From a bacterium (GTDB lineage Bacteria > Patescibacteriota > Saccharimonadia > CAILAD01 > JADZBC01): a DNA stretch of 64,000 nucleotides. The notes under the pieces were generated by a model that searched no databases, was not told the origin of the DNA, and saw only the letters and a program-made list of their open reading frames with translations. The position numbers and the translations under genes are program-made. This document shows positions 14,774 to 35,426 of the stretch, piece by piece. The stretch is from contig JADZBC010000009.1 of assembly GCA_020852295.1 (NCBI GenBank), positions 7,081 through 71,080 of the forward strand. Direction: 5' to 3'. Positions within the stretch are counted from its first letter, which is position 1; every line of letters starts with the position of its first letter.

Positions 14774-14870
14774 CATCTCGGGGCATCCGACAGGACTTGC
14801 CGCGCATCCTCTGTAGTCATTCCTGACATGCGCCGGGTGCCAAGCTACATAGTTGTATAATGAAGTTGTT

Positions 14871-15983: not shown

Positions 15984-16018
15984 GCAGTCTGCATCATAAT
16001 AAGGCCAAAGGTGAGGGT

Positions 16019-16633
16019 ATGAACGACGAACAGCAACCAGTAAAGGGGCCGCGACAGCAGCCCGTCCAGCAGCCAGAGAAAAAACAGGGGAGGTTTGCCG
16101 CAGCTTTTGGGGCGCTCGTTGGGCCCGACAAGGAACAGGTTATTTCGCACCCAGACGAAGAGCCGGCCGAACCCGAGGTGTCACTTCTTCAGTGGCGCGC
16201 ACCCGAGTTTGCCTACACCAAGAAGCCCGTTGGTTGGTTTGTGGCACTCGGCGTGCTTTTTGCTGGCCTAGTTGCGCTCGCCATCTACACACAACAGTGG
16301 CTGACGATCGGTCTACTGGCCGTTATGGCTATCGCGGTCGCCGTATATGCCAACCGGGAGCCCCGTGAGCTCGACTACGAAATAACCAACTACGGCATCA
16401 AGATTAACGACAAAGACTACGACTTCGACAAATTCCGCTCGTACTATGAGATGGACGACTACGGTCACAAATACATCGACTTTGTGCCGGTAAAGCGGTT
16501 TGACCTGCTTGTTTCTATACCAGTACCGCCAGAACTCGAGGACGACATCGAAGACCTCATGAGTCAGGTGCTGCCCAAGACCGAGACGCGCAATGACGCT
16601 ATCGACAAACTCTTTCGCTTCCTCCGCTTCTAG
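16019..16633 (+). CDS. Hypothetical membrane protein with two TM helices.
   Basis: 204 aa. Q/P-rich N-terminus, two adjacent TM helices (WFVALGVLFAGLVALAIY / LTIGLLAVMAIAVAVYA), acidic C-terminus. Confidence 0.55.
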   Translation: MNDEQQPVKGPRQQPVQQPEKKQGRFAAAFGALVGPDKEQVISHPDEEPAEPEVSLLQWRAPEFAYTKKPVGWFVALGVLFAGLVALAIYTQQWLTIGLLAVMAIAVAVYANREPRELDYEITNYGIKINDKDYDFDKFRSYYEMDDYGHKYIDFVPVKRFDLLVSIPVPPELEDDIEDLMSQVLPKTETRNDAIDKLFRFLRF

Positions 16634-16680
16634 CCTTCCAATTATTGCTCGTTTAAGGTAAAATAAGCCGGTTCTAACGC

Positions 16681-16757
16681 GCGCTCGTAGCTCAGTTGGA
16701 TAGAGCGTCGGTTTGCGGTACCGGAGGTCGCAGGTTCGAATCCTGCCGAGCGCACCA
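16681..16757 (+). tRNA. tRNA-Arg (anticodon read as GCG), CCA encoded.
   Basis: Canonical cloverleaf. Acceptor gcgctcg/cgagcgc, D-arm gctc-agttggata-gagc, anticodon stem tcggt/accgg with loop ttGCGgt, T-arm gcagg-ttcgaat-cctgc, discriminator A followed by CCA. Confidence 0.8.
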
Positions 16758-16800
16758 GAGGCCCATAAATCAGCAATGGTTTGTGGGCCTCTGGTTTTCT
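16757..16800 (+). terminator. Hairpin with T-tract after tRNA-Arg, a possible terminator.
   Basis: agaggccca-(loop)-tgggcctct followed by ggttttct. Confidence 0.4.
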
Positions 16801-16849
16801 GGTTGACTCTATTGGATTTTCAGGTTAGAATTTCTTTTGCTTTTACAGC

Positions 16850-16925
16850 GAGGGCGGAGCTCGGCCTGGCTGAGCGCTCCCTCAACCCGAGGGAGAGGTC
16901 GGAGGTTCAAATCCCCCCGCCTTCA
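16850..16925 (+). ncRNA. tRNA-like element A. Acceptor, D and T arms are intact, but the anticodon arm is replaced by a 7-bp stem with a 5-nt loop. Possibly a pseudo-tRNA.
   Basis: Acceptor gagggcg/cgccttc (all paired, one G.U), D-arm gctc-ggcctggct-gagc, T-arm ggagg-ttcaaat-ccccc (one mismatch), central hairpin ctccctc-aaccc-gagggag. No U33 or purine-37 context, and no CCA. Confidence 0.35.
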
Positions 16926-16968
16926 CTGGGTCTCGAGACGCTGCCATGTGCCGTCTCGGGACTCGCTT

Positions 16969-17063
16969 GCGAGTAAACGCTGGGTGATGGCACCCCAGCT
17001 CCTGTTGCCGCAGGAATAGGTTTCGTGATCTCGCCTATCGTGGGTTCGGGTCCCACTACTCGC
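16969..17063 (+). ncRNA. tRNA-like element B. Type-II-like with 5 arms and a perfect 7-bp acceptor, but the anticodon-position loop is 6 nt.
   Basis: Acceptor gcgagta/tactcgc; hairpins gctggg-tgatggcac-cccagc, tcctg-ttgccg-cagga, atagg-(13 nt)-cctat; T-arm gtggg-ttcgggt-cccac; no CCA. Confidence 0.3.
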
Positions 17064-17090
17064 TCGAGGCAGGCATGCCACAAAATGCCG

Positions 17091-17172
17091 CGGGCTGTAG
17101 CGCAAAGTGCCTTCGGGCCGGTAGCGCGCTGCCTTCGGGCAGAGGTTGCTGGTTCAAGTCCAGCCAGCCCGA
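17091..17172 (+). ncRNA. tRNA-like element C. Acceptor and T arm are intact. The anticodon arm is replaced by a UUCG-tetraloop hairpin, and a second UUCG hairpin is inserted in the D-loop. There is no anticodon.
   Basis: Acceptor cgggctg/cagcccg perfect; D stem gcgc/gcgc with inserted gcc-ttcg-ggc; ctgcc-ttcg-ggcag in the anticodon position; T-arm gctgg-ttcaagt-ccagc; discriminator A. Confidence 0.35.
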
Positions 17173-17280
17173 CGAGAGGGAGCCCACAAAGCACGGCAAG
17201 CCGAGTAGGCAACTCCCTCTGGTGGGTGGATCGATGAATGTACGCATGACACGCGTAAACTGTCGATCCACCCACCCCAC

Positions 17281-17355
17281 GCCCCTGTAGTTCGCGGTAA
17301 GAACACTGGGGAATCCACGCCCCAGAGGTTGGCTGTTCGAATCAGCCCAGGGGCT
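17281..17355 (+). ncRNA. tRNA-like element D. Canonical acceptor, D and T arms, but the anticodon loop is 9 nt (or 8 nt with a 6-bp stem).
   Basis: Acceptor gcccctg/caggggc perfect; D-arm gttc-gcggtaa-gaac; stem ctggg/cccag around loop gaatccacg; T-arm ggctg-ttcgaat-cagcc. Confidence 0.35.
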
Positions 17356-17383
17356 CAAAGGCTCGATCAGCCTCAATGATCAC

Positions 17384-17454
17384 GCGCCCGTAGCTTAAGC
17401 GGCAAAGCTCTGTCTCTTAAACAGGAGTTGAGGGTTCGAATCCCTCCGGACGCA
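17384..17454 (+). tRNA. Probable tRNA-Lys(CTT). Slightly atypical, with one acceptor mismatch and no nucleotide at position 26.
   Basis: Acceptor gcgcccg/cggacgc (C4-A69 mismatch), D-arm gctt-aagcggca-aagc, anticodon stem tctgt/acagg with loop cTCTTaa (U33, A37), T-arm gaggg-ttcgaat-ccctc, discriminator A, no CCA. Confidence 0.5.
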
Positions 17455-17488
17455 CAAATTGTTACCTTGGATTGGTCCAGGGTAACCA

Positions 17489-17515
17489 CCCCGGCTCTAT
17501 GCCGGGGTTTGCTAT
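17489..17515 (+). terminator. Rho-independent terminator closing the tRNA / tRNA-like array.
   Basis: ccccggc-tctat-gccgggg followed by tttgctattt. Confidence 0.6.
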
Positions 17516-18328
17516 TTACGATAATTTTTGAAAAACGCCGTGCAGAGTGTGTTCGAGACCGAAATATCGTTCGTCAGATTGTTTTTGAATAGCCTCGTAA
17601 ATCCGTGTCTCGACCACCAACTTAACCGGCCTGAAGCCAAGCTTTTCAATGAGATCATAATCTTGCTGTGTTCCACCATCCCAAACCAAATATCCACCTG
17701 GCTTTATGACCCTGGCGGCCTCTTGTAGGGCCGCATCACGGAGATCAGATTCATGGTCTGGTTCGAACTCTCGCAGAGCCCCATTGAGGGCACTAATATG
17801 AACCGAGCCAGCCGAATTATGCGCTAGTGGCATCTGCCGCACGTCAGCAATCGCATCCAGCTTCGCGCCTGGCATCCCCAGCGGCGAGTGTGTAACGTTT
17901 GTCACGAAATCAGGTTTGGCATCTGGCAGAATGTGCGAATCAGCCCTGCGCTCGGTTGGCCCGGCAAACTCAACTGCAGTGCCCGCGCCGTGCACAGTTG
18001 GCCAATCTATATCTCCCCAACGAAAAGTTTGGGTTATGGAGCGGTATTCATCGTCTGTTGTTTCTTCCCCGCGCGGTGGATCTATTTCGTAGTCATAGTC
18101 TATCTTGGCATCAGGTCCGAGTTTTGCCGGCAACCAAGAGTCGACATGGCGTAATATCTTCTCGGCCTCTTCTCTCTTAAAAAATGTCGTGTCTGATAGA
18201 TCAAACTCGCGCCCCACTAGGTGCAATAAGTCTTGGTGGAGGTTTTCGTGGGAGGGAAGTGGTGTTTCGCCAGGCATAGCTCGATTATAGTCTAAACCGC
18301 TCGAGCCTGGTACAATATTGCAGATCAA
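17516..18328 (-). CDS. Hypothetical protein, possibly with a SAM-methyltransferase-like C-terminal segment.
   Basis: 270-aa complete ORF. RVIKPGGYLVWDGG resembles the post-motif-II region of class I methyltransferases. Support is weak. Confidence 0.5.
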   Translation of the reverse strand: MICNIVPGSSGLDYNRAMPGETPLPSHENLHQDLLHLVGREFDLSDTTFFKREEAEKILRHVDSWLPAKLGPDAKIDYDYEIDPPRGEETTDDEYRSITQTFRWGDIDWPTVHGAGTAVEFAGPTERRADSHILPDAKPDFVTNVTHSPLGMPGAKLDAIADVRQMPLAHNSAGSVHISALNGALREFEPDHESDLRDAALQEAARVIKPGGYLVWDGGTQQDYDLIEKLGFRPVKLVVETRIYEAIQKQSDERYFGLEHTLHGVFQKLS

Positions 18329-18332
18329 CTAA

Positions 18333-18424
18333 GGAGAGATGGCCGAGTGGTTGAAGGCGCTGCTCTCGAAAAGCAGTATGCGGGGTTACTCGCATCGTGG
18401 GTTCGAATCCCACTCTCTCCGCCA
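18333..18424 (+). tRNA. tRNA-Ser(CGA), type II, CCA encoded.
   Basis: Acceptor ggagaga/tctctcc, anticodon stem ctgct/agcag with loop cTCGAaa, long variable arm, T-arm gtggg-ttcgaat-cccac, G followed by CCA. Confidence 0.85.
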
Positions 18425-23162: not shown

Positions 23163-23594
23163 ATGGCCCGAAAAGACAAGAATGCTGAAAACGAGATCCT
23201 AGAAGAGGAATTTCTAGACACCGAAGCTACCAACTCTGAAGACTGGATGAACGAAGAAGAGTTTGAAGGTCAGCTGGCGGTTGATGTTTACCAGACCAAA
23301 GAGACAGTAGTGATCAAGGCACCAATCGCCGGTGTTCGTCCACAAGATATTGACGTTGCCATCTCTGAAGACGTTGTAACGATCCGTGGTGACCGCAAAG
23401 ACGAAAAGGCAGTTGAGAAGGAGCACTACTATGTCCAGGAGTGTTTCTGGGGCTCATTTAGCCGATCAGTGATCTTGCCAACCAGCACGATCGCAGATGA
23501 AGCAGTTGCCACCCTCAAGGACGGCGTACTTACCATCGAGATTCCTAAGGTTGCCCAAAACAAGATCAAGAAGATCAAGGTCAGCCCAGTTTAA
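23163..23594 (+). CDS. Hsp20/alpha-crystallin-family small heat-shock protein.
   Basis: Alpha-crystallin domain (AVDVYQTKETVVIKAPIAGVRPQDIDVAISEDVVTIRGDR ... GVLTIEIPK). Confidence 0.9.
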   Translation: MARKDKNAENEILEEEFLDTEATNSEDWMNEEEFEGQLAVDVYQTKETVVIKAPIAGVRPQDIDVAISEDVVTIRGDRKDEKAVEKEHYYVQECFWGSFSRSVILPTSTIADEAVATLKDGVLTIEIPKVAQNKIKKIKVSPV

Positions 23595-23614: not shown

Positions 23615-23645
23615 GACAGACCACCTTCAGGTGGTCTGTTTTTGT
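23615..23645 (+). terminator. Rho-independent terminator after hsp20.
   Basis: acagaccacc-ttca-ggtggtctgt followed by ttttg. Confidence 0.7.
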
Positions 23646-24982
23646 TATTGACGAGAGCGCGCGATCTCTTGTGTGACGCGCGTGGCTGCCGCCTTGGTAG
23701 AGACCGCCGCATCGAGACCACCTCGAGCGCCGTTGATCAGGTCGGCGAAGATACCTTCGACATTATAATTGTTACCCTGATACCAGGTACGTGATGTATT
23801 AACTTGCCCAGCAAATACACCGATAGATCGATCGTCGCGCTGCTTGTCCACCATGTCGCGGCGACTGGCGGGGCGGTAACTTGCCAGGGAATACTTGTTA
23901 AGCTCCTCGCGAGAGCTAATAAAACGTAGGAGGTCCCAGGCTAGTTCGGTGTGTTTGGAGTTTTTATTGACCAGCTCATCCCAGTGGCTCGCGTAGTTGA
24001 TCTGGTCACGCCCAGGTAACTGGGGCAGGCTTGCCACCTTGTAGTTGAGCGCCGGATTTTGACGCTCAAGTAGGGGCGCGCGATACCCGTAGTCGATAAG
24101 CATCGCTAGCTTACCCTGCGCAAAGGCATCGACTGGATTGCCGAGCGCGTCATTCCAGGCGTAGACCGACTTGTTGGGATTGCTAAAGCTATTGAAGTAG
24201 TCAACCGCTCGCGCTGCAGGGTAGTAGTTGTTTGCATCCGGCAAACCAAAGGTCGCCTTAGTGGGTGGCGAGTCGGTCATCTGAGCGCCGTTCTGCATCA
24301 TGAGCACCGAAAGAATATCGACATAGTTGGTCACACCCGGGGTGCCGAGAGCCACACCGGCTCGACTAATCGATTGGCCGTTCTTGGTGGTTAGTTTTTT
24401 AGCCACATCAGCGAACTCTTGCCAATTCTTTGGGGGCTGAGCAATTTTCGCGGCTTCAAAGATATCAGCGTTGTAATACAGCCCAAGCGTAGATATTCCA
24501 AAGGTCAGTCCATTGATGGTGTCGCCGGTAGTAAGATCACGCTGCGCGACATCGACAAATGTATCGCGATACTCCTGGGGCGTAAAGACAGTCGTCGGTG
24601 CCGGCACAAGAGACTTCTGGTAGCGCGGCAGCCAGTCGTTGCGCACCGTGAATATATCTGGCAGTGTGCCTTTTGCTTGATTGTCCGACAGCAGCTTATC
24701 GTATGAAGCAGCCGGCTGATTGACTAGCTTCACGGTGATATTTGGGTGGAGCGCCTTGTAGTCGGCCAGGATTGCGTCAAGCGCTTTCGGATCAACGTCG
24801 GGACGCCAATACGTCAAGGTGATCGGCTCCGTCGGATAGGTCACACGTGACTGATAGGTGGGGGGTGAGAAAAAGGGGATCGTGCGTTCGCGTACAGCTT
24901 TGTAAATAAAATACACTACCAGACCAAAGGCCAGTAGCAACAAAAGAGCGCGCCAGTTGAGTTTTGTTAGACTTCTTTGCAC
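23645..24982 (-). CDS. Membrane-anchored ABC-transporter substrate-binding protein (family 1, carbohydrate-type).
   Basis: 445 aa. N-terminal signal/anchor (ALLLLLAFGLVVYFIY), then an SBP_bac_1-like fold with the conserved ...MLIDYGYRAP... region. No permease is adjacent. Confidence 0.65.
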   Translation of the reverse strand: MQRSLTKLNWRALLLLLAFGLVVYFIYKAVRERTIPFFSPPTYQSRVTYPTEPITLTYWRPDVDPKALDAILADYKALHPNITVKLVNQPAASYDKLLSDNQAKGTLPDIFTVRNDWLPRYQKSLVPAPTTVFTPQEYRDTFVDVAQRDLTTGDTINGLTFGISTLGLYYNADIFEAAKIAQPPKNWQEFADVAKKLTTKNGQSISRAGVALGTPGVTNYVDILSVLMMQNGAQMTDSPPTKATFGLPDANNYYPAARAVDYFNSFSNPNKSVYAWNDALGNPVDAFAQGKLAMLIDYGYRAPLLERQNPALNYKVASLPQLPGRDQINYASHWDELVNKNSKHTELAWDLLRFISSREELNKYSLASYRPASRRDMVDKQRDDRSIGVFAGQVNTSRTWYQGNNYNVEGIFADLINGARGGLDAAVSTKAAATRVTQEIARSRQ

Positions 24983-25013: not shown

Positions 25014-25397
25014 TTACTTGAATTGCCCCAGAGTAAAGTTGACGATTGCGTAGGCCAGTATAGCAATAATAAGCCCTATTACCGCGTAGACGATCGTGTC
25101 TTTGGCGCCGGTGGTAGCCTTTTCGTTGCCAGCCGATAATACATATCGCAGAGCGCCAATGATGATCATGATAACCGATGCAACCCCCACTACAATAAGC
25201 AGGGTGTTGGTGATGGTGCGAATACTATCGAGCAAATTACTCGTGGCACCAGTGCCAGCAGCGCAGTCTGCACCACCCTGAATCGTATTGTCAGTGCAGG
25301 CAGCCGACGCTGGACTAGGTAATAAGCCAGGTAACAGCAAAGCTAGCTGGATTGATCCAGCTAGCAGTTGGTTACTTACTTTTTGCTTTGCAGCCAC
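25014..25397 (-). CDS. VirB2/TrbC-like pilin-family protein, paralog 6 of 6.
   Basis: Signal peptide, Cys-containing variable segment, and shared C-terminal module TNTLLIVVGVASVIMIIIGALRYVLSAGNEKATTGAKDTIVYAVIGLIIAILAYAIVNF (TM, short polar loop, TM). Confidence 0.6.
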   Translation of the reverse strand: MAAKQKVSNQLLAGSIQLALLLPGLLPSPASAACTDNTIQGGADCAAGTGATSNLLDSIRTITNTLLIVVGVASVIMIIIGALRYVLSAGNEKATTGAKDTIVYAVIGLIIAILAYAIVNFTLGQFK

Positions 25398-25399
25398 CC

Positions 25400-25816
25400 C
25401 TACACCGCCGGCGTTTGGGTAAACTGCCCAAGGACAAAGTTAACAGCAGCGTAAGCTACGAGACACACGATAATACCGATGATGGCATATACGATAGTGT
25501 CCTTCGCGCCCGTAACGGCCTTTTCGTTACCTTGAGAGAACACATAGCGGAATCCTCCGATGATCAACATCAGAACCGCAACAATACCGACACCCAAAAT
25601 AAGAGTGTTTGTGATTACACGAATATTGAGCAGCAAATCTGTGGATGCACCAGTCGGCTTAATTTTGTTCAGTCCGCCCGGGTCATCTGGATTTAGGGCA
25701 CTTGGTACTGTTACATTTGGTTGCGTCCCGGGGGCGTCAACTGCCAAAGCGCGACTAGCAGCCATCGTGAAGTAGGCTCCGGCAACTGCTGGCACACTTT
25801 TTAATACGTTTCTCAT
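25400..25816 (-). CDS. VirB2/TrbC-like pilin-family protein, paralog 5 of 6.
   Basis: Same C-terminal module (VITNTLILGVGIVAVLMLIIGGFRYVFSQGNEKAVTGAKDTIVYAIIGIIVCLVAYAAVNF). Confidence 0.6.
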   Translation of the reverse strand: MRNVLKSVPAVAGAYFTMAASRALAVDAPGTQPNVTVPSALNPDDPGGLNKIKPTGASTDLLLNIRVITNTLILGVGIVAVLMLIIGGFRYVFSQGNEKAVTGAKDTIVYAIIGIIVCLVAYAAVNFVLGQFTQTPAV

Positions 25817-25899
25817 CTGATAATTTCTCCTTGGTATTGTGATATTAATATAATTCTTGACCTGATTGTAGACTATTTTTTTGAGCGTGACAATTATAT

Positions 25900-26187
25900 C
25901 TAGAGGCGGCCAATGATAAAGGTGACGATGGCATAGCCAAGTACTGCCAACACTACACCGACAACCGCATAGAGGATAGTATCCTTCGCTCGAGCCAGTT
26001 TGTTTTGATCACCCGCCGAGACCACATACATAAGGGCACCTACGATGATCATGATGACCGAGCCACTGCCAATGACAAAGATGATCGTATTAATGATAGT
26101 GGTAGCGAGATTACCTTGGGTCGTGAACGATTTGGCCGCTACGTCGGGTGGTACACTAACCACGATGTCTGAAAATATTTTTCCCAT
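25900..26187 (-). CDS. VirB2/TrbC-like pilin-family protein, paralog 4 of 6 (shortest, 95 aa).
   Basis: Module IINTIIFVIGSGSVIMIIVGALMYVVSAGDQNKLARAKDTILYAVVGVVLAVLGYAIVTF. Confidence 0.6.
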   Translation of the reverse strand: MGKIFSDIVVSVPPDVAAKSFTTQGNLATTIINTIIFVIGSGSVIMIIVGALMYVVSAGDQNKLARAKDTILYAVVGVVLAVLGYAIVTFIIGRL

Positions 26188-26192
26188 CGAAT

Positions 26193-26678
26193 TTAGTTGG
26201 CCTTTCCGATAACAAATGTGACGATAGAGTAGGCGAGAATGGCAACGATAAGACCGACAATCGAGTAAACAATTGCATCCTTGGCGACTCGCGTTCTGTT
26301 GGGATCACCCGCCGAGAACACATACAGCGCCGCGCCTATTAGTACGCCGATGACTGACACAACCCCGACGATCCAGCCAAGGAAGGTTATGACTCTTGAG
26401 ACAAGCTGGTTGACTGTAGAAGGAGTGGCACTACCCCCAAGCGATGAGGGTACCTTGGCGCCCGAGGCATTTGTTGGAGCTGGAGTAGGGGCGGGAGTAC
26501 GAGGAACCCCAACTACACATCTACCGTCTGGCTGAGCAGTCTTTCCGGTGCTTCCGTCGGGCAAGGTGCAAGGCAGGCCAATATCTTCAGGTGGCAATGC
26601 CGCCGATGCCATTCCCACGAAAGACAACGCTAGGCCCAATATGAGTATCGCCGATGTAAATAAATACTTTGGTTTCAC
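26193..26678 (-). CDS. VirB2/TrbC-like pilin-family protein, paralog 3 of 6, with a Pro/Thr-rich variable region.
   Basis: Signal peptide, Cys pair, PTPAPTNAS linker, then module VITFLGWIVGVVSVIGVLIGAALYVFSAGDPNRTRVAKDAIVYSIVGLIVAILAYSIVTF. Confidence 0.6.
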   Translation of the reverse strand: MKPKYLFTSAILILGLALSFVGMASAALPPEDIGLPCTLPDGSTGKTAQPDGRCVVGVPRTPAPTPAPTNASGAKVPSSLGGSATPSTVNQLVSRVITFLGWIVGVVSVIGVLIGAALYVFSAGDPNRTRVAKDAIVYSIVGLIVAILAYSIVTFVIGKAN

Positions 26679-26686
26679 ATCTTTAC

Positions 26687-26950
26687 CTATTTAAACTGCG
26701 TTACTACTACATTAACTATGAGATAGGCAGACATTGCGATTACAAGACCAGCAATAGACCAGGTAATCGCATTTTTCGCTTGGCGCAGCCTATCAGGTTG
26801 ACCAAATGAGGATGCGTACATAATGCCGCCAATAATAAGAAAAATTACCGATAGTACACCCACGAACCAAAAGGCGATAATCATAGCATTTGCAAGTATC
26901 TGCTTCGGCCCATCGAGCGAGAACAGGTCCACACCATTAAAGAGATTCAT
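26687..26950 (-). CDS. VirB2/TrbC-like pilin-family protein, paralog 2 of 6.
   Basis: Module ANAMIIAFWFVGVLSVIFLIIGGIMYASSFGQPDRLRQAKNAITWSIAGLVIAMSAYLIVNV. It overlaps the next gene by 1 nt. Confidence 0.55.
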   Translation of the reverse strand: MNLFNGVDLFSLDGPKQILANAMIIAFWFVGVLSVIFLIIGGIMYASSFGQPDRLRQAKNAITWSIAGLVIAMSAYLIVNVVVTQFK

Positions 26951-27339
26951 TAAAAGTTACCTCCGGCGATTATCAAGTTAAGAATAACCCTCATAGATAC
27001 AAGAACAAACAATCCTGTTATCGAGGTTACTATTCGTTTTTTCGCCGCCTTAATTCCGTCCGGTTGACCCGCAGAAGTAATGAGTTGGATTGAGCTGATA
27101 ATAATAACCAGGACAGCCACCCCGCCGATAAGCCCAGTTACCCAGTTGGCAATCCCGTTAATTAGCATGATTGTTGCGTTTTCGCCGCCCGCACCGCATA
27201 TCGCACTAAGCCCAGGTGTACCTACCGTCACGTTGCCGCATTGTGCCGCATGAGCCGGTGTGCCACTCATAGCAACGAGTAGTGCGCCAATCAGTGTTTG
27301 TAATATTCTACCTTTGAGATTTTCCTGTTGCGCATCCAT
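26950..27339 (-). CDS. VirB2/TrbC-like pilin-family protein, paralog 1 of 6, closest to the divergent VirB6-like operon.
   Basis: Signal peptide ...AMSGTPAHAAQC, Cys pair, then module MLINGIANWVTGLIGGVAVLVIIISSIQLITSAGQPDGIKAAKKRIVTSITGLFVLVSMRVILNL. Confidence 0.55.
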   Translation of the reverse strand: MDAQQENLKGRILQTLIGALLVAMSGTPAHAAQCGNVTVGTPGLSAICGAGGENATIMLINGIANWVTGLIGGVAVLVIIISSIQLITSAGQPDGIKAAKKRIVTSITGLFVLVSMRVILNLIIAGGNF

Positions 27340-27429
27340 ATAGGTATATTCTACGATTGTAAATCGGGCGAGTCAAAGTGAAGAGTTTCGATTGCCCGAA
27401 CACCATAAAAAGTTTATGATGAGTCTAAT

Positions 27430-30400
27430 ATGAGAGTGCGAGGGACAAAATATAGCAGGGCGCTATCGAGGATGCTTGGTCTGGCTGTATTTGTCATCGC
27501 CCTAACTGCTGTTTTCGGTATATTCAGCGCTCCCCGCGCCGAAGCTGCGATCAATAAGGACTGGGTCCAGCCAGCCTGGAGGGATGGGATTGGTGATAAT
27601 GGAACCGACGACGAAAGCAGGATACACTGTGGCTTCTTGTCCTCAGCACGCATCGTGTGCGAACAAAAGATTGGTGGGGTTTCGGGTGCGGATGACACGT
27701 TTGATTTTTGGTATGACCCAATAAACAGCAAGAAGTATGCATCTCTAGATGTTTTCCGATCAGATTCTGGACAGAACGCCGGAGATGGCGACCAGGGGTG
27801 GATCGTCTGTAGTATACAGGGAGGTTATGCCGAGGACACCTGCTACGCCCTCAAGGACCTGACTGATACAACCGCCCAAGGCTACACCTCTGGAAGACCC
27901 GTGACCGGGTGGAGCTACAAGGGTATTGACTTAGCCCCTTCAAAAGACTGGTCGATAGATAATGTCGGCGAGTTCGATAAAGATCCGGACTGGAAGGGGA
28001 TAGATACGGACGCCGATCGGGATAAGATATGTAACATAAAAATGTTTAGTGGCGATGCGCCGCCGCCAAGTACGTGCATTACGGGCTTCAATGGCACTAG
28101 GGACGTAGATATATCAGCACTGAGTAGTTTTGTTAGTGGATATCCTCAGTGGCGTGATGCCGATGCCCTCAAACGCGCCTGCGACAACGCCGTTGGGATA
28201 CTTAGTTTTATAATCTGCCCGATCATTGGCTATATGAACAACACGATAGTTGCCATGATTGGGAAAGAGAATCTACCTTCGGGAAGGCTAAATGGTAGTT
28301 TTCCGGCAGAAGGGCAAACGCCGTCTGAACCCAAGGGCTTACTCATTTCTCTTTTAGAAGTGCGTCCCCTACTAGCAAAGGTGAGTAGTGGAGGGGGTTC
28401 TTTCGGTGACGCCACTCCTGCCTCGGGATCTGCTGTTACCTCTGGTATCTGTGACGACGCAAGCGATCCAGGGGGCGCAGACACAGCCTACACCTGCTCC
28501 ATAAAAGTCATGTGGAACAACATGAAGAACATCACGCTCACGATCTTTATATTGATATTCTTAGTAATTATATTTGCTAACGTGGCTACGATAGGCATTG
28601 ACAATTACACAATTAAAAAGATGCTGCCCAGACTTGTTGCGGCGGCTATACTGATACAGTTTTCGCTACTTATAGTAAGCCTACTGGTAGATATCTTTAA
28701 TATCTTTGGTAAAACCGTATCGGGTCTTATCCTATCACTGGCGCCTGCGACATCTGTATGCTCGACTGTAGCTACTGGTCCCAGCGGCACAGGGGCCGGT
28801 AAGGTTGTGCTTGGAGCAGGATTGGGCGTTGGTGTAACAGCCCTTCTCGCTAGTCCTGTTGGAGGACCTATAGCGCTCGTTGGAGTCGTTGTGATAATCG
28901 TCCTTGTGGTTATGATCGCTATAGCCGCCATCGGTGCATTTATCGCCCTGCTTGCGAGACAGCTCATAATCTTCGCTCTCGTTCTTACGGCGCCTTTGGC
29001 TTTCGCTGCATGGATCCTACCGGGAACTGAAAAATACTTCAAGCTCTGGCGTGATAACCTTATTAAGTCACTCGCCATGTTCCCAATCGCAGTTTCTATG
29101 CTTGCTGCGGCAGTACTGTTTAGTACTACCGTTATTCAGGTAAGCGCTTGCGAGCAAGAATTTAGCCTGTCCACAATCATGGCTGCGCTCGTACCAATGG
29201 TAGCGCTGCTGATGCTGCCGAAGACTTTCAAATGGGGCGGCAACCTAACCTCGGCCATCGCGGGCGGCATCATGGGTGCAGCCGTAGCTCGATCAAAAGG
29301 GGTCGGTAGCGCTGCCTCCCGCTACGGCAAAAATCAAGTTAAGAAGGGTGCTTCGGGTCTAAAAAATGCAGCGCAAGACCGACTGAGCCAAACTGGTTTT
29401 GGTCAAAACACCAAGACCGGCCGCTTCTTGTCGGGCGGCGGACTGTTCGCTTCATATGCAGGCACTACCGGAAGCCGGCAGGCTGTAGCAGCGCGTAAAA
29501 ATGCCGCCCAGTCTGCGGCAGATAGAGAGGCAGCAAACCTACTTCGCCAAGCAAATAGTTTAGATGCCGATGCACGCAATACCAACCTCTCTGGAAGACG
29601 GCGAGCGGCGGCTGCAAGAGAACGAGACAGAATCCGCGAAAAGCTCTACGGCAGTAGCGCCACTCCTGCTATGCGGGCTGCTGCCCTAAACGCAGCGGCA
29701 AATGCAGGCGACCACCAAACATTAACAGCAATACATGGCGAATACAGTAGGCGGCGCAACGGCGCGCAGGAGTGGCAGGAAGCACTTAACTCTACCGGCT
29801 CACATGATGCAGTAGCGGCCACCATGCATGCCCATGCACAGACACTTGCACCCGGTAGTGCTGAGCGAAATAGCATCAACCAAATGCTTACCGGCGCGGG
29901 TGCTACACCTAAGCTGCGCGCAGCCGCGGTAAAGACCATGGCAGCAGCGGGCGATGGCGCTGGACTGGTTGCTGCGCATGAGAACACAGTACGTGCCGGC
30001 GGCCAACAGGCGTGGCTGGACGCTATTAATGCCAACCCTGGTTCAATGAAAGCTGTCGCTGATGCAGTATCTACCCACGCTTCTGGCATGACTGGGTCAA
30101 TTTATGCCGGCGCACCTGACTATAACCATGATAAAGCAGCCGCCCTGTCAGTCATAACAGGACAACAGGCAAGTCCGGCACTTCGTTCTGCAGCGTTAGG
30201 TACCCTTGCGAAGTCTGGCAATGAGGAAGGTATTGAGGCTGTTCGCCAAAGCATCCGCGCCGCGCACACAGACCGCACTACGGGCGTAGTAGACGAGGTT
30301 GCTGCTGGTCAAGAATGGGCGCGTGCGGTACAAGCAAATTATGGGGACTTCGACAAGGTTCCACACTTGCGACCATTTGCCGACGCCGAGCGCGCCGGTG

Positions 30401-31728
30401 AAGCAGCCAAGCTGACCGCCGGATCTTTTGCCGATGTGGCAGGGGGCGTAAAAAAGACACTTACTCGCCCAGAATTCTTAGAATCAACACTCTCGCCAAA
30501 AGTGATTACTGAGGCTACCGATGTGCAGCGCACCTCAATTCCGCAGGCAGCGAGGGAGAATATTGGACTTTGGGCTCACGGCGCAGCTAATGAAGTAGAC
30601 GCAAGCGGTCAGCCCGTAATGACGGCAGCTCGTCGGGCAGCTGAACTTAGGGCAGCCGGCCACCGAACTGAAGCGGATGCTGTTGAAGCCAGGGCGAATG
30701 AGTATAAGACTGTGCTAGACCGAAATGGCAACTGGACCGCACCAGCAGCCGGCGCACCCGCCGGCTCAGGCGGATCCTCATCCACAGGGACTGGCTCGTC
30801 TGGAGGCTCCACCACAATGCCACGCGGTGCTGCTGGTGGCCACACAGGAACCGTCAACGCAAGTGGGCTCTGGGTGCCTAATAGCACAGGAGGCTCTGCA
30901 CGATCAGGGTCTGGCCCATCTACGGGACCTACACCGCCTCCTGGAGGAGCACCACCGCCACCTCCTCCACCGACTGGCGGCCCCGGACCAAGCACACCGC
31001 CACCTACGGGACCTACACCGCCTCCTGGAGGAGCACCGCCGCCTCCTCCTCCAACCGCAAGCTTTGACCCACTTGGCTCAGACCTTGACCCGGGCTATGG
31101 GGCAAATAGGGAAGCTCAGTCTCGTATCTTGGCGGATATGGCGGCAGGCAAGAGCGCGAGCGAAGCAGCTGCAACACACCTAGATTCTGGCTCATCGCCA
31201 TTTGATATCGGCGAACTCCCTGGCTCCTCATTGCCAGCAGGTGAGAGAAGTGCCTGGACTCCTCCATCTGAGCGAGCAGCCGACTGGACCCCACCGACTC
31301 CACTGCCAGCCGAAACTCCAGCACCAACTAGTCCGATTGATGATTCCGTGCGATCCACCGCATCCTCAAGCAATACAACCACAGGCACAACTGTCCAGGG
31401 CTCCTCATCCGATGAATCTAGTGCGAGCAGCGGCAAGTCAGTCCCTACATCGTCAACTTCTGGTCGAGCAACTGGCAGCCGCGTCGACGCAGGCTCAAGT
31501 GTAGCAAGCGACTTGGCGCGCTATGATGCCGAAACACGAGCTCGTCAAGCGGCCGATCGTGCGAAAGAATCCGCCCGTGAAAGCTCTAAAGAAACTCGAA
31601 AGCTCATCGAGCGCACCGAAAAAAATAGACGTGAGGACATGAGAAGACTCGGCAACAGAATTGAGGGGGGCGGCGATACAGGTACAGAGGCAGAGGCTCC
31701 GCAAAACGACACAAGTAACGAAGAATAG
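27430..31728 (+). CDS. Giant VirB6/TrbL-like T4SS inner-membrane channel protein with an N-terminal secreted Cys-rich domain and a long Ala/Pro-rich disordered C-terminal tail.
   Basis: 1432 aa. Signal peptide, about 350 aa extracellular domain with many Cys, then 6-7 TM helices with a VirB6-like pattern (...ILIQFSLLIVSLLVDIFNIFG..., ...LLARQLIIFALVLTAPLAFAAWILPG...). After that come Ala-rich RAAAL repeats and PPPGGAPPPPPP tracts ending in a basic/acidic tail. Confidence 0.6.
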   Translation: MRVRGTKYSRALSRMLGLAVFVIALTAVFGIFSAPRAEAAINKDWVQPAWRDGIGDNGTDDESRIHCGFLSSARIVCEQKIGGVSGADDTFDFWYDPINSKKYASLDVFRSDSGQNAGDGDQGWIVCSIQGGYAEDTCYALKDLTDTTAQGYTSGRPVTGWSYKGIDLAPSKDWSIDNVGEFDKDPDWKGIDTDADRDKICNIKMFSGDAPPPSTCITGFNGTRDVDISALSSFVSGYPQWRDADALKRACDNAVGILSFIICPIIGYMNNTIVAMIGKENLPSGRLNGSFPAEGQTPSEPKGLLISLLEVRPLLAKVSSGGGSFGDATPASGSAVTSGICDDASDPGGADTAYTCSIKVMWNNMKNITLTIFILIFLVIIFANVATIGIDNYTIKKMLPRLVAAAILIQFSLLIVSLLVDIFNIFGKTVSGLILSLAPATSVCSTVATGPSGTGAGKVVLGAGLGVGVTALLASPVGGPIALVGVVVIIVLVVMIAIAAIGAFIALLARQLIIFALVLTAPLAFAAWILPGTEKYFKLWRDNLIKSLAMFPIAVSMLAAAVLFSTTVIQVSACEQEFSLSTIMAALVPMVALLMLPKTFKWGGNLTSAIAGGIMGAAVARSKGVGSAASRYGKNQVKKGASGLKNAAQDRLSQTGFGQNTKTGRFLSGGGLFASYAGTTGSRQAVAARKNAAQSAADREAANLLRQANSLDADARNTNLSGRRRAAAARERDRIREKLYGSSATPAMRAAALNAAANAGDHQTLTAIHGEYSRRRNGAQEWQEALNSTGSHDAVAATMHAHAQTLAPGSAERNSINQMLTGAGATPKLRAAAVKTMAAAGDGAGLVAAHENTVRAGGQQAWLDAINANPGSMKAVADAVSTHASGMTGSIYAGAPDYNHDKAAALSVITGQQASPALRSAALGTLAKSGNEEGIEAVRQSIRAAHTDRTTGVVDEVAAGQEWARAVQANYGDFDKVPHLRPFADAERAGEAAKLTAGSFADVAGGVKKTLTRPEFLESTLSPKVITEATDVQRTSIPQAARENIGLWAHGAANEVDASGQPVMTAARRAAELRAAGHRTEADAVEARANEYKTVLDRNGNWTAPAAGAPAGSGGSSSTGTGSSGGSTTMPRGAAGGHTGTVNASGLWVPNSTGGSARSGSGPSTGPTPPPGGAPPPPPPPTGGPGPSTPPPTGPTPPPGGAPPPPPPTASFDPLGSDLDPGYGANREAQSRILADMAAGKSASEAAATHLDSGSSPFDIGELPGSSLPAGERSAWTPPSERAADWTPPTPLPAETPAPTSPIDDSVRSTASSSNTTTGTTVQGSSSDESSASSGKSVPTSSTSGRATGSRVDAGSSVASDLARYDAETRARQAADRAKESARESSKETRKLIERTEKNRREDMRRLGNRIEGGGDTGTEAEAPQNDTSNEE
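30922..31051 (+). repeat. Imperfect direct repeat inside the VirB6-like gene: two 47-nt units with an 83-nt period, encoding GPTPPPGGAPPPPPP.
   Basis: acgggacctacaccgcctcctggaggagcaccRccgccRcctcctcc occurs at 30922-30968 and at 31005-31051. Confidence 0.7.
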
Positions 31729-31733: not shown

Positions 31734-32573
31734 ATGGGACAATATAAAGTACCACAAAACGTAGAAACCGAAGATAAGATCTTGGGTCCGCTGACGATCA
31801 AGCAGTTCATCTATGTGATCATTGCTCTAGCCTGGGGATTCATCATGTGGCGAATCTTCTCGGCGGCTATACCGATCGCAGTGCTTACCATTTTGCCGGT
31901 TAGTGGAGTGTTTTTAGCGCTCGGTCTCATCCAGCGAGAAGGACAAAGTTTTGAGAACTATTTTGTGGCAATGGTTCGTTACTTTTTCGTGCCGCGCATG
32001 CTGGTTTGGACCAAGGAGCCAGAAATGGTTCAGGCCATCAAGGCGCCAAAGAAGAAGGTCGACACCGGTCCAACTTATCGCCGTAGCCCTGACGAGATAC
32101 GTGGTGCACTCAAAAAACTAGCCACCGTTATCGATACACATGGCCAGTTTCAAAAAGGGGAGACGCTCCAGCTGGCGGATGACCAAAACGAAGCAGCCGA
32201 GATCAGTAAGCGCATCGCCGGGCCACAAAACCAGTCGCTTGAGCAGCATATCAACAACATGGCACAAGCAAGTGACGATATCCTTGATCCGAACAGCGCT
32301 CGCGCCGGCTCGGTCGGCAATTTGCTTCAAAATGTCGAACAAGACGTCCGTGCTCAAGCCAGGGCAACTATGGAAAAAGACCTCCTAAAGTCTGACCGAA
32401 AAACTGCCGACCTCATACCAACGAACGTGCAAGCTACTTCTCACACCCACGCCCAAGATGCTATACTCAAAATGGCTATGCAGAGCGGCGGCATATCTGT
32501 TTCACAGCTCGCCCAGCAAGCCAATCGCCACCTAACCCTTGAGGAGGGTAAGGCGGTCAAGATAGAGCAATAG
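31734..32573 (+). CDS. T4SS VirB3/PrgI-like small membrane protein (two TM helices) with a C-terminal soluble extension.
   Basis: Sits immediately upstream of VirB4. N-terminus ...EDKILGPLTIKQFIYVIIALAWGFIMW... followed by a second TM, the topology typical of VirB3/PrgI. The assignment rests on position and topology, not on a family match. Confidence 0.4.
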   Translation: MGQYKVPQNVETEDKILGPLTIKQFIYVIIALAWGFIMWRIFSAAIPIAVLTILPVSGVFLALGLIQREGQSFENYFVAMVRYFFVPRMLVWTKEPEMVQAIKAPKKKVDTGPTYRRSPDEIRGALKKLATVIDTHGQFQKGETLQLADDQNEAAEISKRIAGPQNQSLEQHINNMAQASDDILDPNSARAGSVGNLLQNVEQDVRAQARATMEKDLLKSDRKTADLIPTNVQATSHTHAQDAILKMAMQSGGISVSQLAQQANRHLTLEEGKAVKIEQ

Positions 32574-32613: not shown

Positions 32614-33531
32614 TTGCAGCCACAGGCCAATGCAAATCAAAATCCAGCTGCACCAGTCGCAGCTAATGCTGATCCTTCGGCAACACCGCCGAAAAAAGCA
32701 AAGGACCTGCGACAAAGTACGCAGAATCACTTACTGTTATCAGAAATACGTGATGGCATAGTGGTGATGCGCGATGGTAGCCTTCGCATGGTTATCATGG
32801 CTTCTGCGCTCAATTTCGACCTCAAAAGTCCCCAAGAACAAGATGCGATCGAAAGCTCGTATCAAGGATTTCTTAACGGTCTTCATTTCCCAATCCAAAT
32901 CCTAGTACGGTCTCGTCGAATGAACCTCGACAACTATCTGGCCGAGCTGGAGAGACTCCAAGGTGAACAAGAAAACCAACTCCTCGCTGGTCTCATGGAA
33001 GACTATATCTACAACATTCGCGGCCTCATTCAGGACATCAACATCATGGATAAGGAGTTTTACATCGTCGTACCTTATTACACGCTAGCGGTCACCAAGG
33101 AAGGTTTGGCCAGCAAGGTTCGTAAGGTATTTGAGGGTAATCGCGAGGTGAGCCAAACTGCTGAGACATTTGAGGCACACAAGCGAGATCTTATACAGCG
33201 CACCAACCTCGTTGCCCAGGGACTTGCACAAATGGGTGTTCGTGCGGCAGTACTGAATACCCAGGAGCTGATTGAGCTCTTTTACTCCGTCTACAACGAA
33301 GACGAATCACAGAGCCAGTCGCTCGTCGAAGTGGATGAACTTACGACCCCTATTGTAGAGCGAGGCAACGCAGCCCCAATGCCGGCCGGCCCGCCGCCGC
33401 CAGCACCGATCGAGCCAGATGACATGTATACTGCAGCTCAGCGTGAGGGTATTGGGGCACAAGCAACGGCTGCGCCACAAGCGGCCGATCCAAATGCCTA
33501 CCAGCAGCCACCACAAGGGGGGCAGCAGTAA
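32614..33531 (+). CDS. VirB4/TrbE-family N-terminal domain encoded as a separate ORF, with Q/P-rich termini.
   Basis: RMVIMASALNFDLKSPQEQDAIESSYQGFLNGLHFPIQILVRSRRMNLDNYL matches the conserved N-terminal region of VirB4/CagE/TrbE. It ends in a TAATG overlap with the next ORF. Confidence 0.6.
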   Translation: MQPQANANQNPAAPVAANADPSATPPKKAKDLRQSTQNHLLLSEIRDGIVVMRDGSLRMVIMASALNFDLKSPQEQDAIESSYQGFLNGLHFPIQILVRSRRMNLDNYLAELERLQGEQENQLLAGLMEDYIYNIRGLIQDINIMDKEFYIVVPYYTLAVTKEGLASKVRKVFEGNREVSQTAETFEAHKRDLIQRTNLVAQGLAQMGVRAAVLNTQELIELFYSVYNEDESQSQSLVEVDELTTPIVERGNAAPMPAGPPPPAPIEPDDMYTAAQREGIGAQATAAPQAADPNAYQQPPQGGQQ

Positions 33532-35426
33532 TGGGTCTCTTTGGCAACAAGCAACCTCAACAGCCCCAAGTCGATCCGCAGGCAGCCGCTCAAGCTGCGC
33601 AAAATGCGCAGGCAGAGGCCGTCTATCGACAAGGTGTGGTGACGCTTCGTGACACCATCGCTCCGTCATCCTTCGAGATAGAAAGTAACTTCATTAAGAT
33701 CGGCAAGCGCTATGCACGAACGCTGTTTGTCTATGGATACCCTCGTACGCTCTTTACTGGCTGGCTCAGCCCGCTCATCAACCTAGACGAGGTTATCGAC
33801 ATCAGTATGTTTATCGAGCCAGTCGAAAGCCGAGTGGTACTCGAAAACCTTCGCAAAAAAGTAGGGCAACTTGAAGCTAGCATCACTATCAACCAAGAAA
33901 AGGGCATGGTGCGTGATCCGGGCCTGGAAGCGGCAGTCCAAGATGCCGAGGAACTCCGTGACGCCCTACAGGTTGGAGAAGAACGCTTCTTCCGCTTTGG
34001 ACTGTACTTCACAATCTACGGCAAAGACCTCGAGGAGCTCGACCTCGTTCAGCGCAAAGTCGAGAGTATGCTTGGTAGTAGCCTGATCTATACCAAACCA
34101 GCCACTATTCAGATGGAGCAAGGCTTCAACTCCTCGGTACCAATTGCGACCGACCTACTTGGCATCAGCCGCAATATGAACACAGGCTCACTCTCAACAA
34201 GCTTTCCTTTTACGACTGCGGAGCTTAGTCAGGATAAGGGAATTATGTATGGCGTTAATCGGCACAATAACAGCCTGGTTATCTTTGACCGGTTTAGCTT
34301 AGAAAACGCCAATATGGCCGTCTTTGCTAAATCTGGTGGTGGTAAGAGTTTTGCGGTCAAGCTTGAATGCCTGCGCTCGCTCATGATGGGTACCGAAATC
34401 ATCATTATCGACCCAGAAAACGAATATAAGACCCTGTGTGACGCAGTCGGGGGTGGCTTTTTACGCCTCTCGCTGGCCAGTGACACCCGCATCAATCCAT
34501 TTGACCTGCCTCAGACAGTAGACCCAGAAGAAGCCGACAATGCGCTTCGAGCCAATATTATTATGCTCACTGGACTCATCCGACTGATGTGTGGCGACCT
34601 TTCGCAAACCGAGCTGGCCGACCTCGATGTGGCGCTCATCAATACTTACGCCGAAAAGGGGATTACCAATGACCCTCTCACGCATACTGCCGTGCCGCCA
34701 ACCATGACCGACCTGTACAACACCCTCATCAGCATGGGCGGGACCGGCCCATCAATTGCTGCTCGTTTGCGCCGCTACGTTGAAGGTACCTTCTCTGGAA
34801 TCTTCTCACAGCAGTCCAATGTCGACCTGAACTCAAAGTTCGTCGTGTTCAATATTCGTGACCTGGAAGACGAAATGCGACCGATCGGCATGTACATCAC
34901 ACTTAACTATATCTGGAATCGCGTGAAGAGCGAGAAGAAAAAGCGCATTCTCGTGGTGGATGAAGCCTGGCAACTTATGCAATATCAAGAATCGGCTCAG
35001 TTTATGTTCTCGATCGCCAAGCGTGCCCGTAAGTATTACCTTGGACTTACTACGATCTCGCAGGACGTCGAGGATTTCTTAAGTACCCGCCTTGGACGTG
35101 CAGTCGTCAGCAACTCATCACTCCAGCTCCTGCTTAAGCAATCACCATCGGCTGTCGATATTGTAGCTGATACCTTCAAATTAACTTCCGAGGAGCGCAA
35201 CCGCCTCACACAGTTCCCAGTCGGTGAAGGGCTATTCTTTGCTGGACTGTCGCACGTGATTCTGCGTATTCTTGCTTCTCCTACAGAAGAACAACTCATC
35301 ACCACCAACCCACAACAATTGCTCGACCGCGAAGCTGCCACACAGGCACAAACCCTGACTGACGAACTAACCGCTGGGCCCGTTGAGCTGGCGCAGCAGA
35401 CAGATGCTGGAGTAGCAAATGGCTAG
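33531..35426 (+). CDS. VirB4/TrbE-family T4SS ATPase, C-terminal ATPase portion.
   Basis: Walker A AVFAKSGGGKSF, Walker B ILVVDEAWQLM, and VirB4-type motifs (IIIDPENEY, RKYYLGLTTISQDVEDF). Confidence 0.85.
   Translation: MGLFGNKQPQQPQVDPQAAAQAAQNAQAEAVYRQGVVTLRDTIAPSSFEIESNFIKIGKRYARTLFVYGYPRTLFTGWLSPLINLDEVIDISMFIEPVESRVVLENLRKKVGQLEASITINQEKGMVRDPGLEAAVQDAEELRDALQVGEERFFRFGLYFTIYGKDLEELDLVQRKVESMLGSSLIYTKPATIQMEQGFNSSVPIATDLLGISRNMNTGSLSTSFPFTTAELSQDKGIMYGVNRHNNSLVIFDRFSLENANMAVFAKSGGGKSFAVKLECLRSLMMGTEIIIIDPENEYKTLCDAVGGGFLRLSLASDTRINPFDLPQTVDPEEADNALRANIIMLTGLIRLMCGDLSQTELADLDVALINTYAEKGITNDPLTHTAVPPTMTDLYNTLISMGGTGPSIAARLRRYVEGTFSGIFSQQSNVDLNSKFVVFNIRDLEDEMRPIGMYITLNYIWNRVKSEKKKRILVVDEAWQLMQYQESAQFMFSIAKRARKYYLGLTTISQDVEDFLSTRLGRAVVSNSSLQLLLKQSPSAVDIVADTFKLTSEERNRLTQFPVGEGLFFAGLSHVILRILASPTEEQLITTNPQQLLDREAATQAQTLTDELTAGPVELAQQTDAGVANG

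Follow-up and report, generated by a model that had tools for sequence, protein, structure and literature searches.

What do six divergent pilin genes, set in tandem beside a type IV secretion system (T4SS), build in a bacterium whose T4SS might be expected to use a single pilin? We addressed this question for a 64,000-nucleotide stretch of contig JADZBC010000009.1 (hereafter the window) from a member of the Saccharimonadia, in which six consecutive minus-strand open reading frames (ORFs) had been predicted to encode VirB2/TrbC-like pilins. The six ORFs are present and span exactly 25014-27339. That they are VirB2-like T4SS pilin genes is, in our judgement, nearly certain. With moderate confidence, we further propose that their products are six non-redundant VirB2-like subunits of a single structure, wall-spanning or extracellular, that is built by the T4SS and used in the epibiotic interaction. 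The locus adds no new kind of system, being ordinary for its lineage and already published as a type. What is new here are strain-level recombination islands, a promoter-like site before the last two genes of the array, and relatives in which 2-17 pilin modules are fused.

Six tandem genes of one pilin family

Profile searches bear out the assignment to the VirB2/TrbC-like T4SS pilins. All six proteins match Pfam PF18895 (T4SS_pilin), with E values (1e-12 to 7e-6) well outside what chance would give. Against a gathering score of 26.6 bits, five proteins pass, while pil3, at 26.5 bits, falls 0.1 bit short; a hidden Markov model (HMM) built from the six matches pil3 at E 2e-34 and the alignment agrees, such that pil3 is clearly homologous to the other pilins by sequence despite the shortfall. 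The sample was then widened to 119 pilins, those of the window together with members of 24 related arrays. Every one matches PF18895, and 37 of the 119 also match PF04956 (TrbC/VirB2) at E<1e-3, the strongest at 8.9e-9. Because these relatives reach PF04956, the family is a divergent branch of the VirB2 superfamily, and its sequence relation to canonical VirB2/TrbC is one of superfamily level. All six proteins additionally match NCBIfam NF045849 at E 2e-8 to 4e-6, although these scores of 26-34 bits are below the cut-off of 40. The family is very large: when 1.84 billion proteins were searched with a profile of the six, 72,194 cluster representatives matched at E<=1e-3. Proteins identical to pil6 and pil5 (IT414_00950 and IT414_00945) are annotated at NCBI as 'hypothetical protein [bacterium]'.

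The original prediction named assignment to an unrelated small-membrane-protein family, such as holins, as the outcome that would overturn it. By that explanation, the six would be holins, transporter fragments or the like that resemble pilins only in hydrophobicity. Weak, non-significant Pfam matches to Phage_holin_8 (E 0.07-0.19), DctQ, DUF6112 and others speak for it; against it stand the far stronger PF18895 matches, the reach of part of the family to TrbC/VirB2, the retention of such genes beside VirB4 in 45 related loci, and a context of T4SS and housekeeping genes rather than phage genes. Family assignment and conserved T4SS linkage thus already refute this explanation.

The genes were numbered by coordinate, and transcription runs from pil6 to pil1. 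The first-transcribed gene, pil6 (26950-27339, minus strand as for all six; 129 amino acids (aa), ATG start, 48.4 bits on PF18895), has a signal-peptide-like N-terminus (AHA before A31), Cys34 and Cys48, and a hairpin of two transmembrane (TM) segments joined by the loop SAGQPDGIKAAKK. Its stop codon shares 1 nt with the ATG of pil5 (26687-26950; 87 aa, 45.4 bits), for which no signal peptide is predicted. The third gene, pil4 (26193-26678; 161 aa, GTG start, 38.2 bits), encodes a predicted signal peptide (ASA before A26), Cys37 and Cys54, and a Pro/Thr-rich linker followed by the hairpin module, and is followed by the short pil3 (25900-26187; 95 aa, ATG start, E 7e-6), also without a predicted signal peptide. 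The array ends with pil2 (25400-25816; 138 aa, ATG start, 37.3 bits), which has a weakly predicted signal peptide (ALA before V25) and no Cys pair, and pil1 (25014-25397; 127 aa, GTG start, 37.8 bits), which has a predicted signal peptide (ASA before A32), Cys34 and Cys45. Spacing between successive genes, from pil6 to pil1, is -1, 8, 5, 83 and 2 nt. An HMM search of the 64-kb window with the profile of the six found only these same six genes.

Inspection of the alignment reveals the C-terminal module that had been predicted for all copies: a TM helix, a loop of the form S-x-G-x(7)-A-K-[DNK] and a second TM helix. S88, G90, A98, K99 and G108 are invariant among the six, and the loop carries conserved K/R residues. 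Identity between paralogs over this module is 26-65%, with pil1 and pil2 at 65%. The N-terminal parts, by contrast, are essentially unalignable between paralogs (8-33% over few aligned columns). Their description as hypervariable holds at this level but not between close strains, where three of the six proteins are 99-100% identical. At the DNA level, a search for direct repeats (inverted repeats were not searched) finds at most 70% identity over 61 nt between any two copies. Copies this dissimilar indicate that the duplications are old, with neither recent duplication nor gene conversion; a cassette mechanism was rejected on the same direct-repeat result.

TM segments were called from a Kyte-Doolittle scan, and signal peptides by a heuristic (hydrophobic core plus AxA site) rather than SignalP. 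The predicted T4SS pilin topology stands, as each of the six has two TM segments. The further claim of a signal peptide in all copies stands in part: AxA sites are clear in pil1, pil4 and pil6, the hydrophobic core of pil2 is weaker, and pil3 and pil5 have none. Missing signal-peptidase sites had been listed as evidence against a pilin; by the heuristic they are missing in pil3 and pil5, but not in the three copies with AxA sites. Both pil3 and pil5 are bare two-helix hairpins with an N-terminal tail of 20-28 aa. Cys content differs as described, with exactly two Cys in the exposed N-terminal part of pil1, pil4 and pil6. An AlphaFold2 model of pil1, based on 86 aligned sequences, places helices at 55-86 and 92-125 with a predicted local distance difference test (pLDDT) score of 90-95, and a low-confidence N-terminus. 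A helical hairpin with a short basic loop, which is a trait of canonical VirB2, is thus present in the window copies by TM scan and in the pil1 model.

Array order, fused relatives and strain variation

To place the array among its relatives, related genomes were surveyed with the HMM of the six, counting loci with at least four detected pilin genes. Arrays of 4-6 genes were found in all 29 Saccharimonadia and 16 Microgenomatia loci so counted, and nearly every related locus with sufficient flanking sequence has such an array. A published survey of Patescibacteria reports 441 arrays, of 2-11 pilin genes in tandem close to virB4, in 383 assemblies (Quinonero-Coronel et al., Microb Genom 2025, PMC12102498). 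The premise that one pilin is usual does not apply in this lineage. Arrays are divergent from the T4SS operon in Saccharimonadia and co-directional with it in Microgenomatia. Between equal-length arrays, 757 of 1023 reciprocal-best-hit links (74%, where chance gives 20-25%) join genes at the same array position, and the Louvain communities of the reciprocal-best-hit graph track that position. Links that touch a first gene join two first genes in 485 of 599 cases. For pil6 itself, all 35 of its 35 reciprocal partners are first-transcribed in their own arrays, 11 of them from Microgenomatia. Genes at the first position and at the last two resolve cleanly as positional orthologues.

Each array position also has its own traits. 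Among the 29 Saccharimonadia arrays, first genes encode proteins of 111-301 aa with a signal-peptide-like N-terminus in 28 and at least two Cys in all 29; in Microgenomatia, the longest first-position product measures 647 aa. The products of second genes are short, with a median of 100 aa, and for the most part have no leader; last genes encode at least two Cys in 23 of 29 arrays, with exactly two in 22. As judged from sequence, the paralog classes and their order are ancient and predate the split between Saccharimonadia and Microgenomatia. Orthologues are 40-60% identical across relatives, compared with ~80% for VirB4. In the cultured Southlakia epibionticum, strain ML1, the orthologous six-gene array is essential for growth on the host (PMC10633639; reviewed in PMC12857230). 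Transposon sequencing (Tn-seq) scored each of its six genes, SEML1_0014-0019, GD/ES/ES, the code for a growth defect early on (first time point) and essentiality at both later time points (PMC10633639). Conserved order, positional traits and this individual essentiality together favor specialised, non-redundant subunits.

The top matches of the family-wide search were single proteins that carry 2-17 tandem pilin modules (P0121, P0144, P0003, P0126 and P0138). Each is a continuous sequence with short linkers between modules. The six-module P0121 (L096:1777-3435) sits within a pilin array, and the 17-module, 1775-aa P0144 (L097:8001-13328), which is probably archaeal, adjoins an L39e ribosomal-protein gene. 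Because both termini of a hairpin lie on the same side of the membrane, fusion preserves topology, and it implies that modules are neighbours in the assembled structure. The modules within P0121 are mostly alike, so that this adjacency concerns modules in general rather than different paralog classes.

Comparison with close strains was used to address selection on the array. One close strain is represented by a 19-kb contig (L081) that is 93% identical overall and carries six pilin genes of the same lengths. Estimation of dN/dS (omega) by the Nei-Gojobori method, which had been suggested as a check between variable and conserved parts, gave 0-0.10 for every pilin gene and at most 0.14 for every segment except the one coding for the pil6 signal peptide, where sites are too few. 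Positive selection on the pilins was rejected on these values. The same ratio is not meaningful from paralog to paralog because the N-terminal parts cannot be aligned. Synonymous divergence (dS) is uneven along the array: 0.03 for pil3, 0.10 for pil5, 0.18 for pil4 and 0.35 for pil6, compared with 1.02 for pil1 and 1.16 for pil2, where the flanking solute-binding-protein and PrgI genes give 0.21 and 0.15.

Comparison with contigs L081, L084 and L088-L095 resolves three sharply bounded divergence islands between flanks of 97-100% nucleotide identity. The first covers pil2-pil1 (25014-25816), at ~78% in 150-nt windows (82% by BLAST). The second is pil6 (26950-27339), with alleles 91% and 83% identical, and the third comprises codons 1-500 of the VirB6-like gene, its 5' third (27430-29250), at 71-81%. 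The 83-nt gap upstream of pil2 is 100% identical in all strain contigs, as is the pil3 protein, L081 included. On contigs that carry this exact pil3 protein we defined haplotype A (the window type, 100% identical in three other samples), haplotype B (the L081 type) and haplotype C (a third pil6 allele, 83% identical). In L084, haplotype C is combined with a pil2-pil1 pair of the B type, and in L092 with a pil2 of the A type. These combinations suggest recombination within the array, with the caveat that short metagenomic contigs may be chimeric across identical stretches. Mature pil1 of the two haplotypes differs at 3 residues only. Taken together, island dS above 1 and omega of at most 0.14 suggest imported old alleles under purifying selection rather than rapid adaptive change, and there is limited support for the exposed parts as hot spots of diversity.

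The 83-nt gap (25817-25899) holds a sigma-70-like site on the minus strand, TTGTCA-17-TACAAT at 25893-25865, and an AGGAG ribosome-binding site. This site and one before pil6 (27376-27348) are the two best minus-strand sigma-70-like matches, each at 10/12. Among the 29 Saccharimonadia arrays, too, 16 have their widest gap just before the final two genes. By sequence, the gap is a possible internal promoter for pil2-pil1, from which we tentatively infer two transcription units; the near-duplicate last two genes (65% identical over the C-module) would be expressed separately and perhaps more strongly.

What the six proteins may build

The preferred reading can be set out as a route from membrane to host. 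Each pilin would insert in the cytoplasmic membrane such that both termini lie outside the cell and the basic loop faces inwards. Insertion would depend on Sec and signal peptidase for pil1, pil4, pil6 and probably pil2, and would be leaderless for pil3 and pil5. A machine of VirB4, VirB6 and VirB3 would then extract the pilins and build one multi-subunit tube or stalk across the wall towards the host cell, in which the six would be non-redundant and specialised rather than exchangeable versions of one subunit. The role of initiator, tip or adaptor would fall to the first-transcribed type, which is a separate, ancient class and in relatives often has a large ectodomain. The last two are near-duplicates preceded by a promoter-like site of their own, and would supply the bulk of the structure. 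The variable N-terminal segments, some of them disulfide-clamped, would decorate the outside of the structure. An F-type conjugative pilus is reportedly ~8.7 nm wide, which resembles the width of a tube seen between parasite and host in Mycosynbacter amalyticus, another member of the Saccharimonadia. By cryo-electron tomography this tube is ~8.6 nm wide and 61 nm long (PMC11880426), and by analogy it is a candidate for the structure that the pilins build.

Several observations weigh against this reading. The M. amalyticus tube is not assigned to a T4SS, and there is no direct evidence of any Patescibacterial T4SS pilin leaving the membrane or polymerising. The window pilins are sub-threshold on PF04956, with best scores of 16.8 bits (E 0.008) and 14.9 against a gathering score of 27.9. 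A PDB sequence search with the profile of the six gave only chance matches (E>1), and a Foldseek search of PDB with the pil1 model gave generic hairpins at a best E of 2.2 and no pilin among the 50 matches listed; a two-helix query discriminates little, and this outcome tells neither for nor against a VirB2 fold. The middle genes pil3 and pil4 have 0 and 1 reciprocal partners and poor positional orthology. For six small genes that share one or two operons, essentiality by Tn-seq may in part be due to polarity. The internal promoter call is a consensus match only, and the tip, adaptor and bulk-subunit roles are themselves inferred.

The same hairpins could instead form a ring or short channel of fixed stoichiometry in or just above the membrane, a part of the translocon with no long pilus. 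VirB2 is required in substrate transfer independently of a pilus, and the hairpins of ATP-synthase subunit c form rings. Gram-positive-type T4SSs are normally without pili (PMC12102498; PMC12857230), and fusions of 2-17 modules fit a closed assembly of defined size more easily than an open-ended polymer. The nearest structural look-alikes of the pil1 model, all non-significant Foldseek matches, are generic hairpins that include ATP-synthase subunit c, in agreement with the ECOD assignments in Table S2 of Wang et al. (PMC10633639). We nonetheless consider a purely membrane-embedded component unlikely, as the N-terminal parts, with their signal peptides, Pro/Thr linkers and Cys pairs able to form disulfides, look like extended domains exposed at the surface. 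First-position genes of relatives likewise carry ectodomains (up to 301 aa in Saccharimonadia; up to 647 aa in Microgenomatia), and the pilus-width tube of M. amalyticus comes from a related organism.

Alternatively, the paralogs might be alternative versions of one pilin, a stock from which the cell could alter or widen its displayed surface, whether to suit different host strains or to avoid recognition by host or phage. This matches the antigenic or host-range diversification of the original prediction; it is also suggested in PMC12102498, and has been proposed likewise for the VirB2 paralogs of Bartonella and Anaplasma. The wholly different exposed N-terminal parts of the paralogs agree with it, as do the lower identity of orthologues relative to VirB4, the sharp strain-level islands at pil2-pil1, pil6 and the VirB6-like 5' third, and allele combinations that suggest reshuffling. 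In contrast, the classes and their order are older than the Saccharimonadia/Microgenomatia split and keep their positional traits, the six orthologues are individually essential in S. epibionticum (PMC10633639), and omega stays low in every segment with enough sites even where island dS exceeds 1. Tight or overlapping gene spacing implies co-expression, no silent cassettes or switching repeats were found among the direct repeats searched, and the two haplotypes encode almost the same mature pil1. Diversification is therefore weakly supported, and we regard a variation repertoire as quite improbable.

Conserved order and traits across two classes, purifying selection and fused relatives favor a multi-subunit machine over such a repertoire. 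The heteropolymeric structure that the original prediction raised as its second option fits order, traits, selection and essentiality better than diversification does, and remains a proposal. A more specific version is tentative, and we would not rely on it: the six types could be obligate partners, each in a defined place, in a heteromeric, lipid-lined conduit between epibiont and host, with the first-gene class as initiator or tip and the last two as bulk. This conduit would be the ~8.6-nm Mycosynbacter tube, the multi-module polypilins would be its covalent version, and the divergence islands would be host-facing. If true, its architecture would be unlike the homopolymeric VirB2 pili of all characterised T4SSs. 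The implication for experimenters is to seek all six proteins in one structure. The matter has weight: few systems have been shown to be essential for Patescibacteria to live as parasites attached to a surface, and the T4SS with its pilin array belongs to these few.

The T4SS neighbourhood and known systems

The array is transcribed divergently from a plus-strand T4SS operon and lies 6.2-8.5 kb upstream of VirB4. The intergenic region between them (27340-27429) has promoter-like sites on both strands, the plus-strand one at 27392-27420; these are consensus matches only. The operon opens with an extended, polytopic VirB6-like membrane protein of 1432 aa (27430-31728). Besides a signal peptide and a TM block, it has an N-terminal domain rich in Cys and a long C-terminus rich in Pro, Ser and Gly. 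It matches NF045848 (MMCAP2_0566) weakly (E 0.002) and is syntenic with SEML1_0013/0011, which Wang et al. annotated by structure as TrbL/VirB6 (PMC10633639). The C-terminal ~350 aa (30700-31728) form a low-complexity tail rich in Pro, Ser, Gly and Thr with poly-proline runs (PPPPPPP); this tail differs by indels between strains (whole protein 1432 versus 1416 aa). Downstream lie PrgI, a VirB3-like protein of 279 aa (31734-32573; PF12666, 52.5 bits), and a TrsD-like protein of 305 aa (32614-33531) that resembles the N-terminal part of VirB4. Its match to NF041427 (TrsD, E 3.8e-6) is below cut-off, and its L081 orthologue has PF26593 (TraC-like). The VirB4 ATPase (33531-35426, 631 aa) scores 372.5 bits on the CD1110-family VirB4 model NF045971, above the cut-off of 325, and matches PF19044 and PF12846. 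It is followed by a 1161-aa protein with a C-terminal M74-like endopeptidase motif (35419-38904), in the position of SEML1_0007. Next comes a multidomain cell-wall hydrolase (38864-40906) with domain matches to M23 peptidase, SLT and GDSL-like domains, which by analogy is a functional counterpart of VirB1/PrgK. A 437-aa protein with no family match (40875-42188) is the last gene before recF and is counted with the T4SS from its position only. All of these genes lie on the plus strand.

The operon is a chromosomal, origin-proximal T4SS of the single-membrane (Gram-positive-type, MPF-FATA-like) kind from an uncultured, environmental member of the Saccharimonadia (TM7, Patescibacteria). The closest relatives of its VirB4 are 81% identical and come from metagenome-assembled genomes of uncultured Saccharibacteria, with Levybacteria (Microgenomatia) next at ~48%. 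The genes recF, dnaN and dnaA occupy 42444-46314, such that the T4SS operon is ~18 kb from dnaA, and the minimum of cumulative GC skew falls in this region.

Several other features of the window were recorded. An Hsp20 gene (23163-23594) lies beside the array, with a solute-binding-protein gene (23645-24982) inserted between. A cluster of eight tRNA genes (14527-18424) includes, by ARAGORN, one with a four-base anticodon (17281-17356; tcca, 'tRNA-???'), a tRNA-Gly with anticodon acc and a tRNA-Arg with anticodon gcg. Two surface proteins are encoded near the origin region, namely a 600-aa protein with VanW and PG_binding_4 domains (49883-51685) and a 604-aa protein with Ig-like (N_BRCA1_IG) and B-lectin domains (53472-55286), the latter a possible adhesin. 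From 55335 to 64000, GC content drops from ~0.50 to 0.41-0.44 across genes for several glycosyltransferases, an epimerase and an ABC transporter ATPase, which probably make up a cluster for surface polysaccharide, possibly acquired horizontally.

The nearest known counterpart is the six-gene PF18895 array of S. epibionticum ML1, whose consecutive genes encode 103-185 aa (Wang et al., Cell 2023, PMC10633639). The two loci were compared by gene order, sizes and Pfam family. In transcription order the pilins measure 132, 185, 103, 126, 127 and 138 aa in S. epibionticum and 129, 87, 161, 95, 138 and 127 aa in the window. Both arrays diverge from a VirB6-like gene (SEML1_0013 in S. epibionticum), both loci adjoin dnaA-dnaN-recF, and both share the order recF, hydrolases, VirB4, hypothetical gene, PrgI, VirB6-like gene and pilins, with Hsp20 beyond (SEML1_0003-0020). 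They differ in that S. epibionticum is an oral species with two VirB6-like genes, whereas the window genome is environmental and has one. In S. epibionticum the Hsp20 gene, SEML1_0020, adjoins the pilins directly and was scored essential (PMC10633639), while in the window the solute-binding-protein gene intervenes; the essentiality data come from S. epibionticum Tn-seq only. The six-gene layout of a cultured oral species is thereby extended to environmental Saccharimonadia.

The window array also fits the general description of Patescibacterial VirB2 arrays (PMC12102498). Those arrays are most abundant in Saccharimonadia and Microgenomatia, have a mean within-array identity of 25% (maximum 54%), and accompany a T4SS near dnaA with no relaxase nearby; their variability was read as possible host adaptation or host-range versatility (PMC12102498). 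Here, likewise, at least two tandem pilin genes lie near virB4 and near dnaA, and no relaxase or VirD4 coupling protein occurs in the large ORFs scanned across the 64 kb, of which the small ORFs were not all scanned. With the arrays of Wang et al. and Quinonero-Coronel et al. already published, the window array is a further instance of a published feature. To that description, the present analysis adds conserved orthologous position classes with their own traits, and purifying selection between strains.

Tandem VirB2 copies in Bartonella, Anaplasma and Rickettsiales (PMC12102498; PMC3556328) are likewise divergent and sit beside a T4SS used in host interaction rather than conjugation. Those, however, are lineage-specific expansions tied to immune evasion in animal hosts, whereas the paralog classes of the window are ancient and ordered, and each is essential in a cultured relative. 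Canonical VirB2/TrbC/TraA pilins (PF04956) are similarly small, with a leader (predicted by the heuristic in most window copies) and two hydrophobic helices around a short basic loop. They too are encoded beside VirB3, VirB4 and VirB6 homologues, and about one third of the window family scores on their model. In contrast to these Gram-negative systems, that of the window is single-membrane, has six divergent paralogs instead of one, two of them without a predicted leader, and lacks VirB5 and outer-membrane core genes; its copies fall below the PF04956 cut-off. Finally, the integrative and conjugative element of Mycoplasma carries a comparable pair of a pilin-like protein (Mbov_0395, NF045849) and a VirB6-like protein (MMCAP2_0566, NF045848), and the six window pilins match the former model, albeit below its NCBIfam cut-off. 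That element is conjugative and has a single pilin-like copy. The resemblance of the two pairs raises the prospect that a pilin-like and VirB6-like pair may, by sequence comparison, be native to monoderm MPF-FATA-type systems, as opposed to the borrowing from Gram-negative T4SSs suggested in PMC12102498.

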